This document shows positions 1,600-2,953 of a stretch of 5,761 nucleotides of DNA, piece after piece (the stretch's first letter is position 1; every line of letters starts with the position of its first letter). The notes beneath the pieces are model-generated. The model searched no databases, was not told the DNA's origin, and saw only the letters and a program-made list of their open reading frames with translations. Made by a program: the position numbers and the translations under genes. Source of the DNA: a virus (Duplodnaviria; Heunggongvirae; Uroviricota; Caudoviricetes); IMG/VR virus record IMGVR_UViG_2675903559_000015. The stretch is one strand, 5' to 3'.

Positions 1600-1675
1600 G
1601 GCCCTTTAGCTCAGTGGTGAGAGCGAGCGACTCATAATCGCCAGGTCGCTGGTTCAAATCCAGCAAGGGCCACCA
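1600..1675 (+). tRNA. ileZ: tRNA-Ile, anticodon CAU (lysidine-type, decodes AUA); ileX/ileZ-like
   Basis: Cloverleaf read by hand: acceptor GGCCCTT/AAGGGCC, D-arm GCTC...GAGC, anticodon loop CTCATAA, T-arm GCTGG-TTCAAAT-CCAGC, discriminator A, encoded CCA. Symbol given by analogy to the Stx-phage tRNA cluster. Confidence 0.85.
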
Positions 1676-1682
1676 TCACATA

Positions 1683-1759
1683 CCGCCATTAGCTCATCAG
1701 GAAAGAGCGCCAGCCTTCGAAGCTGGCTGCGCGGGGTTCAAGTCCCCGATGGCGGTCCA
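1683..1759 (+). tRNA. argN: tRNA-Arg, anticodon UCG (decodes rare CGA)
   Basis: Acceptor CCGCCAT/ATGGCGG, anticodon stem CCAGC/GCTGG with loop CTTCGAA, T-arm CGGGG-TTCAAGT-CCCCG, encoded CCA. Symbol by analogy to Stx-phage cluster. Confidence 0.8.
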
Positions 1760-1772
1760 TTATCTGCATCAT

Positions 1773-1849
1773 GCGTTGTTAGCTCAGCCGGACAGAGCAA
1801 TTGCCTTCTAAGCAATCGGTCACTGGTTCGAATCCAGTACAGCGCGCCA
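1773..1849 (+). tRNA. argO: tRNA-Arg, anticodon UCU (decodes rare AGA)
   Basis: Acceptor GCGTTGT/ACAGCGC (one G-U wobble pair), anticodon loop CTTCTAA, T-arm ACTGG-TTCGAAT-CCAGT, discriminator G, encoded CCA. Symbol by analogy to Stx-phage cluster. Confidence 0.85.
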
Positions 1850-1959
1850 TATTCATTCTTCCAGATTCCTTCCGGCAGAGCCTTATACTGAAATATACCT
1901 GGCTCAGGATATTGTTGAAAATATTTTATGTTTGTCAAAAATAAAAGTTCTGTTAAGTA

Positions 1960-2313
1960 TTGATTGAGTGTTTGTTATACGGTCTAATGGTTTTTTCAGC
2001 ATTAAATATTTATCATTCATATGGTGTGGGTAGAGTGAATATTGATGAGGCGTCGGGGTGTTTCATCCTTAGGCAGCGTATTGATATAGTCAATGCAGCA
2101 CGAGCAAAGGCCTTCAGCCGTTTGACAGTTTTGTTCTGTACTCCTGATCGTCTTTCGGGAAGAGACGTTATTATTCTGAATAGTGATGCTATACAGAGGG
2201 TTTGCGATGAGTTCATGGTTGCTAATTCAGAATTATTTGCTCTTGTTCAGGAGTACAACAGAATAGCCAGGACCTGTGGTATGGATGAACTTCGGATTAC
2301 TCATCTGGGGTAG
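1960..2313 (+). CDS. Hypothetical protein in AT-rich cargo island (117 codons from a TTG start; first in-frame ATG at 1987)
   Basis: ORF track only. No convincing Shine-Dalgarno at either start, no recognisable motif. AT-rich, atypical composition relative to flanking phage DNA. Confidence 0.3.
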   Translation: MIECLLYGLMVFSALNIYHSYGVGRVNIDEASGCFILRQRIDIVNAARAKAFSRLTVLFCTPDRLSGRDVIILNSDAIQRVCDEFMVANSELFALVQEYNRIARTCGMDELRITHLG

Positions 2314-2393
2314 ATACATATCTGGATTATCACCTGTTACGGTAAAAAGTGATTGCTTACTGTTTTTGTGAATGGCATTGCAGCAGCCGGATA

Positions 2394-2480
2394 ATGTCAG
2401 TGCTGGCTGACGGTGTGCTGGTGGCGGGTGTGGTGGTTGTTGCTTTCCCGTTGCTGAAAAAGAAAACGCCAGACTGTTAG
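2394..2480 (+). CDS. Candidate 28-aa hydrophobic mini-protein (MSVLADGVLVAGVVVVAFPLLKKKTPDC), single predicted transmembrane helix with basic tail
   Basis: Hand translation. Weak Shine-Dalgarno (gga) upstream. Could equally be a by-product of GTG-rich simple sequence. Last six codons lie inside repeat copy A. Confidence 0.2.
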   Translation: MSVLADGVLVAGVVVVAFPLLKKKTPDC

Positions 2481-2751
2481 CCGGGTATCAGTTAGCGGGA
2501 GAAATTTTTAAATACTTCACAATTCAGGCGGTTGACTGTTGTCTGGTTTGCGGGGAGTTTGTTAAAAGAAACTGGCATGGTGAATCCCCCTGTGCGGAGG
2601 GGCAATCAGCGAGTAGGTATATGGGATAATCGCGGATTCAGGTGCTGGTACTGAATTCACCGGGAGGCACCCGGCACCATGCAATGGCACATAGCGCCAC
2701 TCTCCAGCCCCTCTCCGGAGGGGCTGTTTATATTGATTTTGTCAGATGTGA
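2463..2751 (+). repeat. 289-bp structured repeat, copy A (identical to copy C; contains several GC-rich hairpins and ends in an intrinsic terminator)
   Basis: Direct comparison with 4710-4998 shows identity over the full 289 bp by eye; partial diverged copy at 2989-3208. Confidence 0.85.
2706..2740 (+). terminator. Intrinsic terminator at the 3' end of repeat copy A
   Basis: Perfect 8-bp stem agcccctc/gaggggct with tetraloop tccg, followed by gtttatattgatttt. Confidence 0.6.
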
Positions 2752-2752
2752 A

Positions 2753-2779
2753 CTGGTTCAAATCCAGCAAGGGCCACCA
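2753..2779 (+). pseudogene. 3'-terminal 27-nt fragment of tRNA-Ile(CAU) (ileZ), 5' part replaced by repeat copy A
   Basis: 2753-2779 matches 1649-1675 (T-arm, acceptor 3' strand, CCA); upstream sequence is repeat A, not tRNA. Confidence 0.8.
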
Positions 2780-2786
2780 TCACATA

Positions 2787-2863
2787 CCGCCATTAGCTCA
2801 TCAGGAAAGAGCGCCAGCCTTCGAAGCTGGCTGCGCGGGGTTCAAGTCCCCGATGGCGGTCCA
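2787..2863 (+). tRNA. argN: tRNA-Arg (UCG), second copy, identical to 1683-1759
   Basis: Sequence identity to copy 1 at constant offset of 1104 bp. Confidence 0.8.
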
Positions 2864-2876
2864 TTATCTGCATCAT

Positions 2877-2953
2877 GCGTTGTTAGCTCAGCCGGACAGA
2901 GCAATTGCCTTCTAAGCAATCGGTCACTGGTTCGAATCCAGTACAACGCGCCA
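2877..2953 (+). tRNA. argO: tRNA-Arg (UCU), second copy, one substitution relative to copy 1 (acceptor stem G to A, converting a T-G wobble into a T-A pair)
   Basis: Copy 2 reads gtacaacgcgcca where copy 1 reads gtacagcgcgcca; the remainder of the tRNA is identical. Confidence 0.85.

Follow-up and report, generated by a model that had tools for sequence, protein, structure and literature searches.

The window, by which we mean the whole stretch of tailed phage DNA analysed here (5,761 nt; features lie on the plus strand unless stated otherwise), opens on a tR'-like intrinsic terminator (9-28, from a terminator scan), located just 3' of the Q antiterminator gene, which is found 73 nt upstream in related loci (L005-L014). 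This block is identical in the two Shigella sonnei loci that we refer to as alpha and beta. It is followed by two alpha-specific modules: orf65 (153-350), small and HTH-like, with a weak TrmB match below the Pfam cut-off and hypothetical in relatives, and an N6/N4 DNA methyltransferase (501-1559; PF01555, E=8e-42), the exact protein of which is present in finished S. sonnei genomes. Then comes a cluster of three tRNA genes, all called by ARAGORN and Rfam: an intact ileZ-type tRNA with anticodon CAU (1600-1675), argN, a tRNA-Arg(UCG) of the alpha type that is degenerate in beta (1683-1759), and argO, a tRNA-Arg(UCU) (1773-1849). Within argO a switch zone (1773-1841) precedes the beta allele, G at 1842. 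By synteny with L001-L014 the cluster belongs to the late region, where Q and the methylase precede it and the stx site, nanS and the lysis genes follow; phage records annotate its genes as argN, tRNA-Arg or tRNA-Ile. It corresponds to the ileZ-argN-argO cluster of Stx-converting and other lambdoid phages, such as the 933W and Sakai prophages. A literature search on ileZ, argN and argO jointly found nothing.

Downstream of this first cluster there is a beta-specific segment (1850-2462) with orf117 (1960-2313, without Pfam match) and a DUF3927 gene (2349-2480; PF13064), and then the first copy of repeat A (2463-2751), which carries the beta STnc100 sRNA gene (Rfam call at 2546-2735; RF02076, 132 bits) with a terminator at 2705-2726. 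After one orphan base, 'a' at 2752, a second alpha piece starts with the last 27 nt of ileZ (nt 50-76; 2753-2779) and proceeds with second copies of argN, tRNA-Arg(UCG), again alpha (2787-2863), and argO, tRNA-Arg(UCU) (2877-2953), the latter with the alpha allele, A at 2946. The anticodon order CAU, UCG, UCU is complete in copy 1, and copy 2 consists of UCG and UCU plus the ileZ remnant. An intrinsic terminator (2968-2985, from the same scan) follows argO in a trailer of the alpha/Stx-phage kind that matches the sequence upstream of stx2A in L002, and behind it lies the alpha allele of STnc100 (copy A', 2989-3219; RF02076, 124 bits), 96% identical to A by self-BLAST.

The right part of the window begins with IS600 (3398-4661, minus strand), an IS3-family element of 1264 bp with orfA/orfB (rve and HTH_Tnp_1 ORFs), identical to annotated IS600 copies and sharing its insertion site with S. 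sonnei alpha. Its 3-bp target-site duplication is absent in the window, where the left flank reads TCC and the right one GTC; the standard S. sonnei locus has TCC on both sides. Next to it, fragment Y (4662-4719, minus strand) is made up of 9 unplaced nt and the 3' end of a DUF977 (ydaW-like) gene (14 codons plus the stop), with 4671-4719 100% identical to L025 and to S. flexneri loci. The second copy of repeat A (4710-4998; 289 nt, 100% identical to the first and likewise recognised by Rfam) runs on into beta, with an iraM/PmrD-like gene (5008-5343, minus strand; exact protein in S. sonnei beta loci, PF11183 on record, annotated as IraM in E. coli) and the start of a DUF1737 gene (5604-5761; PF08410), which is interrupted at 5730/5731 by a second IS600 and is 100% identical to beta including the IS junction. 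The three STnc100 calls scored 132.4, 132.4 and 123.6 bits against an Rfam gathering threshold of 47.

The two tRNA clusters form a direct repeat (1649-1862 and 2753-2966) with a spacing of 1104. Comparison of the copies confirmed what the first-pass annotation had seen: 2753-2953 repeats 1649-1849 at this constant offset, ileZ is retained in copy 2 as its 3' 27 nt alone, and the single mismatch (1842 G vs 2946 A, opposite U4) is an acceptor-stem substitution in argO that keeps the pairing (G-U vs A-U). Such a repeat, 201 nt long with a single mismatch, is not remotely to be expected by chance. The repeat is present in the window, and the doubt concerns its adjacency in a real genome. The sequences after CCA had been described as unrelated; they are indeed divergent farther out, but the first ~13 nt (to 1862/2965) are weakly similar, with 4 mismatches and 1 gap.

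The argO mismatch falls at nucleotide 70 of the 77-nt gene, giving U4:G69 in copy 1 and U4:A69 in copy 2; the 7-bp acceptor stem is intact in both alleles, which reach Rfam scores of 68.0 and 70.1 bits. Trailer TATTCATTCTTCC together with G69 always belonged to one prophage type ('beta/P1', 15 loci), and trailer CACTTATTTTCCC or a close variant together with A69 to the 'alpha/P2' or Stx-phage type (14 loci). The difference between the copies is allelic and non-random, as the co-occurrence of allele and trailer according to prophage type shows, which points to two related lambdoid prophages and not to a fresh tandem duplication with later mutation. To this extent the earlier reading of the copies as alleles is supported.

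Set against finished S. sonnei genomes, the window is a patchwork of segments, each 100% identical to loci located elsewhere in these genomes. Alpha, which adjoins ompW (MTase-ileZ-argN-argO(A)-STnc100-IS600), is the source of 1-1841 and 2753-4661 (match L012), and beta, at ~0.7 Mb from alpha (ileZ-degenerate argN-argO(G)-orf117-DUF3927-STnc100-iraM-DUF1737::IS600), is the source of 1773-2751 and 4710-5761 (match L028-L037). The two sources overlap in 1773-1841, a 69-nt argO block identical in both. From 1773 to 2751 there are zero differences from S. sonnei beta, with 2161-2751 directly 100% identical in L036. Copy 1 of the cluster is a hybrid: over 1649-1841 it is alpha and does not differ from copy 2, and only its final 8 nt, together with the trailer, come from beta. 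Among large or finished S. sonnei contigs, all of the alpha loci (10/10) and all of the beta loci (10/10) had a single cluster and lay apart from each other; S. sonnei 53G (HE616528) was among the compared records. The first-pass annotation had named a single cluster in long reads as the sign that would speak against a two-cluster arrangement, and every finished S. sonnei locus examined shows this by proxy. Judged from their sequences, the donors are remnants resident in one S. sonnei chromosome, 100% identical including the IS600 insertion sites, and since both carry S. sonnei-specific IS600 insertions any event that joined them would postdate chromosomal residence. The DUF977 allele in fragment Y (P0121) is typical of S. 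flexneri; beyond that species a single E. coli was the only carrier seen, so the strain differs somewhat from the finished genomes compared.

These origins bear on two simple accounts that we regard as very improbable, a fresh 1104-bp tandem duplication of one locus followed by a point mutation and the recombination of two free phages before lysogeny. A tandem duplication would produce the constant offset and the joining of unit end to unit start, but the unit comes from two sources (1649-1841 from alpha, 1842-2751 from beta), and the sequences after the copies differ, each being a perfect match to a different resident locus. No single parental locus with a contiguous 1649-2751 and an alpha-type argN was found except for scaffold L054 (see below). 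Against two phages recombining before lysogeny stands that both donors are resident S. sonnei loci. The proposal that the copies are alleles of two related phages joined by recombination stands as far as the two related lambdoid prophages go; the remainder is not supported, given the hybrid nature of copy 1, the residence of the donors and a joint that looks scaffold-like.

Repeat A ends at 2751 and the tRNA repeat begins at 2753, and the 'a' between them fits neither parent (g in both). Window 1-2751 recurs at 100% identity in L054, an IMG/VR scaffold from a sibling S. sonnei draft. At the same end point (...GTCAGATGTGA) one actual N stands in L054, and beyond it comes another alpha piece, which begins at window position 382, exactly where an alpha/beta-identical block begins. 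Further single-N joins lie within this repeat zone in L054, L050 and L051. The edges of the pieces fall on repeat or k-mer node boundaries, and the sibling N stands at the very base where the window itself has 'a'. Copy 2 opens at the counterpart of 1649, and alpha and beta first become distinguishable at 1681, exactly 32 nt farther on; its start is the first alpha-specific 33-mer. The final 33 nt of the window, which ends 31 nt into IS600, are common to the other IS600 junction, and L054 starts 33 nt inside an IS2 end. The second novel joint, where the DUF977 fragment meets repeat A at its left end, is a 10-nt overlap, AAAACGCCAG (4710-4719), besides which we saw no k-mer-graph boundary that would explain the start of repeat A at 2463. 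The sole repeat ending at 2751 is a 10-mer, TCAGATGTGA, common to alpha X. The alpha-to-beta switch and the crossing of IS600 both lie within shared sequence. By these marks, the joint from 2751 through 'a' to 2753 looks like a scaffold join and not like recombination, and 2752 is probably a single-base scaffold gap, or else a filler nucleotide.

We therefore consider it probable that the duplicated cluster is a scaffold artefact, in which contigs of two S. sonnei prophage remnants were stitched together. The window would be a scaffold of contigs from a short-read, small-k (~33) S. sonnei draft, and the real genome would hold two separate defective lambdoid late regions, alpha (Q-tR'-orf65-MTase-ileZ-argN-argO(A69)-terminator-STnc100-X::IS600) and beta (Q-tR'-ileZ-degenerate argN-argO(G69)-orf117-DUF3927-STnc100-iraM-DUF1737::IS600). 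The assembly history that we infer runs as follows. A first contig (1-2751) would begin in alpha, enter beta in the 69-nt argO block (1773-1841) and continue through orf117 and the beta STnc100, and a second contig (2753 onward) would be the true alpha continuation, from the first alpha-specific k-mer inside ileZ. Read pairs between alpha-left and alpha-right would have set the second contig behind the first, and a zero or negative gap would have become the one placeholder base at 2752. IS600 would then have been bridged and the DUF977 piece merged with the beta STnc100-iraM contig via a chance overlap of 10 nt. The truncated second cluster would be the one real alpha cluster seen twice and is probably no real feature, and the same stitching would account for the apparent extra STnc100 copy. 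In that case the G-U/A-U difference is truly allelic and distinguishes the argO gene of one resident prophage remnant from that of the other. The 'a' at 2752 would stand for N, for which the artefact reading needs an N-to-A conversion somewhere in the handling of the data.

Some observations speak against an artefact. The base at 2752 is 'a' and not 'n', the true neighbour being g on both sides; one filler base at a joint without homology, and 10 nt of microhomology at another, are also typical of real illegitimate recombination; a real branch at 2751 would equally explain a contig end in two assemblies; and the allele in Y sets the strain somewhat apart from the finished genomes compared. A called base at 2752, this anatomy of the joints and a true branch that accounts for the L054 contig end would all fit a real event, a recent rearrangement of a single S. 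sonnei strain by template switching between its two resident prophage remnants, which we hold to be unlikely. It would have passed from alpha to beta in argO by homology, from beta to alpha at ileZ nt 50 with no homology and 1 filler nucleotide, and from IS600/DUF977 to beta at the 10-nt microhomology, as homology-facilitated illegitimate recombination or an MMBIR-like templated insertion, and would have left extra argN and argO genes immediately after the STnc100 terminator, with no promoter to themselves. Consistent with a templated insertion, removing 2752-4709 leaves continuous beta with a 289-bp flanking duplication, and S. sonnei does show IS600-mediated rearrangements that bring the surroundings of alpha and beta together (L012). 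On the other side, such a history takes at least four switches among three distant loci without later divergence, its ileZ breakpoint is a k=33 node boundary to the base, in L054 the same left end is followed by an actual N and another right-hand piece (window 382), and the arrangement is missing from all finished S. sonnei loci examined and from all collections searched. A real multi-step mosaic (alpha to beta to alpha to IS600/DUF977 to beta) between remnants 0.7 Mb apart, with the conserved motif TTTTGTCAGATGTGA at the 3' edge of the STnc100 module, also the end point in L054, as a recurrent breakpoint, seems to us quite unlikely. An in vivo hybrid, with P1 x P2 phage recombination followed by homology-facilitated illegitimate recombination, was downgraded given the resident donors and the matching N in L054.

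Exact strings for the A-end/ileZ and DUF977/A joints were absent from IMG/VR, from the JGI metagenomes and from the GTDB representative genomes, among which S. sonnei is presumably filed under E. coli, so that the set may hold no S. sonnei genome and this limits the weight of the search. The IS600/Y junction string was also absent from IMG/VR, Y did not adjoin IS600 in any of the E. coli hits, and its allele was not found in the S. sonnei loci examined. BLAST of the joint stretches gave no contiguous match in 5426 complete E. coli genomes, a result likewise of limited weight since no Shigella record was returned, and an exact-protein look-up of the three joint-spanning ORFs found none on record. 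Neither joint had a second occurrence in any collection searched, L054 having the same left end with another partner.

The 27-nt ileZ fragment had also raised the alternative of an integrase att site, that is, the remnant left by a tRNA-targeting integrase inserting into the phage ileZ. The fragment does run from the T-stem to CCA, the part of the tRNA that many integrases duplicate. However, no tyrosine or serine integrase is present in the window or within 10 kb at alpha or beta, where rve domains belong only to IS600, IS21 and other IS transposases, and the repeat is 201 nt long and takes in two more whole tRNA genes. The enclosed segment (orf117-DUF3927-STnc100) follows an intact cluster and precedes iraM in S. 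sonnei beta, as it does in >1000 E. coli genomes, with no ileZ fragment at its far end. The missing integrase and the missing fragment effectively refute this model, and we give it next to no credence.

As an artefact, the window is a warning that the tRNA/STnc100/IS600 zone of S. sonnei prophage remnants has been mis-scaffolded in several public drafts, and that duplications, att-like tRNA fragments or 'recombinant alleles' in that zone need read-level support before they are interpreted. The sole solid biology is then ordinary, the argO alleles of the resident prophages differing by a pairing-preserving U4:G69 vs U4:A69. If the duplication were true, it would be a small natural case of templated insertion between resident prophages, with promoter-less extra copies of two rare-codon tRNAs, of modest interest; if the mosaic were true, it would point to a module-boundary hot spot for moron exchange in lambdoid late regions.

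Among known systems, the cluster of Stx and other lambdoid phages is alike in its three tRNAs, in their order and spacing and in its setting, behind Q and a DNA methylase and ahead of the stx site, STnc100, nanS and the lysis genes, with 93-94% identity between Stx2a phages and the window. Unlike Stx phages, the window has no stx, the alpha arrangement being an empty stx site, and unlike the Stx-phage cluster its apparent second copy has neither the first 49 nt of ileZ nor any promoter upstream. Repeats A and A' score above threshold for the prophage sRNAs STnc100 (RF02076)/PasD, which are located between Q/stx and sialate esterase/holin genes (bioRxiv 10.64898/2026.05.13.724894). With att sites at tRNA 3' ends the window shares a 3' tRNA fragment from the T-arm, but it has no integrase, its repeat is far above the size of an att core and its relatives show no bounded element. 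The apparent likeness to homology-facilitated illegitimate recombination or template switching, more than sequence alone can demonstrate, lies in a homologous switch, a non-homologous joint, a filler base, 10 nt of microhomology and a templated insertion with flanking duplication; the breakpoints of the window fall on assembly-graph boundaries. Scaffolding of the SSPACE/GapFiller type joins contigs of short-read drafts with single placeholder bases and closes gaps by small overlaps. The window has 'a' where N is expected, but it shares with such joins the single-N joins of sibling scaffolds in the same zone (one at the same base), the k-mer-node boundaries and the 10-nt overlap.

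The window is a lambdoid prophage late regulatory region in which five tRNA genes were found: a tRNA(CAU) of the ileZ type (1600-1675), and two copies each of tRNA-Arg(UCG) (1683-1759 and 2787-2863) and tRNA-Arg(UCU) (1773-1849 and 2877-2953). The stretch 1649-1849 recurs at 2753-2953 at an offset of 1104 with a single mismatch (1842 G, 2946 A), located at nt 70 of the 77-nt argO gene. Its partner is U4, giving a G-U or an A-U pair, and the acceptor stem is intact in both alleles. In the second cluster (copy 2) ileZ is reduced to its last 27 nt, a piece that cannot form a tRNA. 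The first-pass annotation had described this displaced repeat accurately in its coordinates, offset, mismatch and ileZ remnant, with one small correction: the sequence is not unrelated immediately after CCA, where weak similarity persists for the first ~13 nt. Another repeat, of 289 nt and 100% identical (2463-2751 and 4710-4998), has its left copy stopping at 2751, leaving base 2752 ('a') outside both repeats. The window contains three matches to the STnc100 sRNA gene (2546-2735, 3030-3219 and 4793-4982; RF02076, 124-132 bits), and the 289-nt repeat is therefore an STnc100 gene with its flanks.

The window coverage by complete E. coli genomes never exceeded 73%. Two arrangements are common in this species, the P1 type, tRNAs-orf117-DUF3927-STnc100-iraM (O104:H4 and many others, at least 1184 genomes), and the P2 type, tRNAs-terminator-STnc100'-X (UTI89 and others, ~524 genomes), X being the sequence that in S. 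sonnei carries an IS600 insertion. By exact-protein look-ups, finished Shigella sonnei genomes, among them 53G (HE616528; PMC5447701), have one locus of each type in identical orientation, ~0.67-0.78 Mb apart. The locus alpha adjoins ompW and contains a methyltransferase, while beta contains iraM, lacks the methyltransferase and has a degenerate argN. Window 1-1841 and 2753-4661, IS600 insertion site included, match alpha at 100% identity, and 1773-2751 and 4710-5761, with the DUF1737/IS600 junction, match beta at 100%. The order along the window is thus alpha, beta, an orphan base, alpha with IS600, a 58-nt piece (Y, 4662-4719) and beta, with the switch from alpha to beta lying within a 69-nt argO block identical in both loci. 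The argO allele tracks the locus type with no exceptions (G69 with the beta trailer in 15 loci, A69 with the alpha/Stx trailer in 14). The alleles had been attributed to two related phages joined by recombination; they do belong to two related prophages, but these occupy two distinct sites on a single chromosome. A simple tandem duplication that later mutated, already discounted in the annotation, is rejected, as the unit combines two loci and its differences correspond exactly to the alpha and beta alleles. The degenerate argN between ileZ and argO is also seen in some E. coli (L026, 3824-3923, as compared with ~4930-5010 on the reverse strand of the beta locus L028); no tRNA was called at these sites in S. 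sonnei beta or in the E. coli relatives, so these prophages have a cluster in decay.

The 10 alpha and 10 beta loci inspected all have the ordinary separate arrangement with a single cluster. Neither of the novel joints was found in the searched E. coli genomes, GTDB representatives, IMG/VR or JGI metagenomes, and the three joint-spanning ORFs are not on record. As a positive control, IMG/VR was scanned for the alpha X::IS600 junction. This retrieved five S. sonnei-like contigs, two standard and three scaffolds with single-N joins in the same tRNA/STnc100 zone. One of the three, L054, includes window 1-2751 at 100%, breaks off at the same base (...TTTTGTCAGATGTGA) with a literal N, and resumes in another alpha piece, from window position 382. 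It contains the methyltransferase and orf117 twice, as against one locus for each in the finished genomes examined. The remaining boundaries are placed as node ends in a de Bruijn graph of k ~33 would be. The first base of copy 2 corresponds to 1649, which precedes the first base distinguishing alpha from beta (1681) by exactly 32 nt, the final 33 nt of the window are common to the other IS600 junction, L054 starts 33 nt into an IS2 end, and its second piece starts at base 1 of a 343-nt block identical in alpha and beta.

These boundary positions, the piecewise identities, the single clusters and the N of L054 together point to a history of assembly joins. A contig begun in alpha would have been mis-extended into beta, while the true alpha continuation formed a second contig starting inside ileZ. 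Read pairs would have set this second contig behind the first, a non-positive gap being written as one placeholder base, and the remaining gaps may have been closed via IS600 and a chance 10-nt overlap. The second tRNA cluster was thus correctly observed, but it is most likely not a real feature. Against an assembly join, 2752 is 'a' rather than 'n' and read-based filling would give g, so that an N-to-A conversion must be assumed; moreover, a contig end at 2751 in two assemblies has no explanation short of a real branch at that base, the only sequence shared with alpha X there being the 10-mer TCAGATGTGA. One filler base plus a 10-nt microhomology are also traces that genuine illegitimate recombination leaves. 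In addition, IS600 does mediate rearrangements linking the neighborhoods of alpha and beta in S. sonnei (L012). For these reasons we retain genuine template switching or homology-facilitated illegitimate recombination within one strain as an unlikely, though not negligible, origin. In LR213449 (L012 1-5428 compared with L028 1-5570) the genes flanking IS600 in beta (Dam to a 203-aa ORF) adjoin the left IS600 of alpha, a sign that IS600 mediated a large rearrangement between these prophage regions. The 3' tRNA fragment had alternatively been proposed as an integrase att site. This was rejected: neither the window nor the 10 kb around either locus contains an integrase, the 201-nt repeat takes in two further whole tRNA genes, and the enclosed segment leads in relatives into iraM and in no case into an ileZ fragment.

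The right flank of IS600 (3398-4661) also departs from the finished genomes. The same insertion has TCC on both sides in finished S. sonnei, versus TCC on the left and GTC on the right in the window (3395-3400 and 4659-4670), where the right-hand duplication is lost; the right flank was therefore exchanged, either by IS recombination or because a gap was closed across the element. Over its last 49 nt (4671-4719) Y is the 3' end of a DUF977 (ydaW-like) gene, and this end matches at 100% an S. flexneri-typical allele (P0121) that none of the examined S. sonnei loci showed. The other 9 nt of Y lie beside IS600, and the Y/beta joint is a 10-nt overlap, AAAACGCCAG (4710-4719).

Taken at face value, copy 2 would merely double the dose of argN and argO. 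It lacks its own promoter, the promoter-like site (1562-1590) being upstream of copy 1 only, and it starts 18 nt past the T-tract of the STnc100 terminator; if real, it could be expressed by read-through only.

The remaining features comprise a terminator (9-28), a small ORF between it and an N6/N4 DNA methyltransferase (501-1559), orf117 (1960-2313), a DUF3927 gene, an iraM-like gene on the minus strand and a DUF1737 gene disrupted by a second IS600 at 5731. The AT-rich, unannotated orf117, which follows the first tRNA cluster, lacks a Pfam match, and PGAP leaves it out in RefSeq relatives, although 487 blocks of the assembly collection list its exact protein; it is possibly a moron gene between argO and DUF3927. 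An inverted repeat with 12-bp arms (GGCTGGTGGGTG...CACCCACCAGCC, 377-410) lies between orf65 and the methylase and gives a weak, sub-threshold Rfam P26 match on the minus strand; one L054 piece begins within it. The three public S. sonnei-like drafts (L050, L051 and L054) contain redundant or chimeric methylase, tRNA, orf117 and STnc100 modules with single-N joins, and prophage calls and sRNA/tRNA copy counts from them are unreliable.

In Stx-type prophages the STnc100 family is located between Q/stx and the esterase/holin genes (bioRxiv 10.64898/2026.05.13.724894). Alpha-type prophages have natural tandem STnc100/PasD-family arrays between argO and nanS (L004, 4278-4955), made of two good copies and a degenerate one; the window also has a weak match at 3258-3446. 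A conserved motif, TTTT(G)TCAGATGTGA, is found 25-80 nt past the terminator of each STnc100 module. The stx2AB operon of Stx2a phages fits precisely into the space separating the argO terminator from the STnc100 module (4394-5725 in the Stx2a phage L002), and the alpha arrangement in the window (2994-2997) is the corresponding empty site. The P2 type is, in these terms, a Stx2a phage minus stx2AB.
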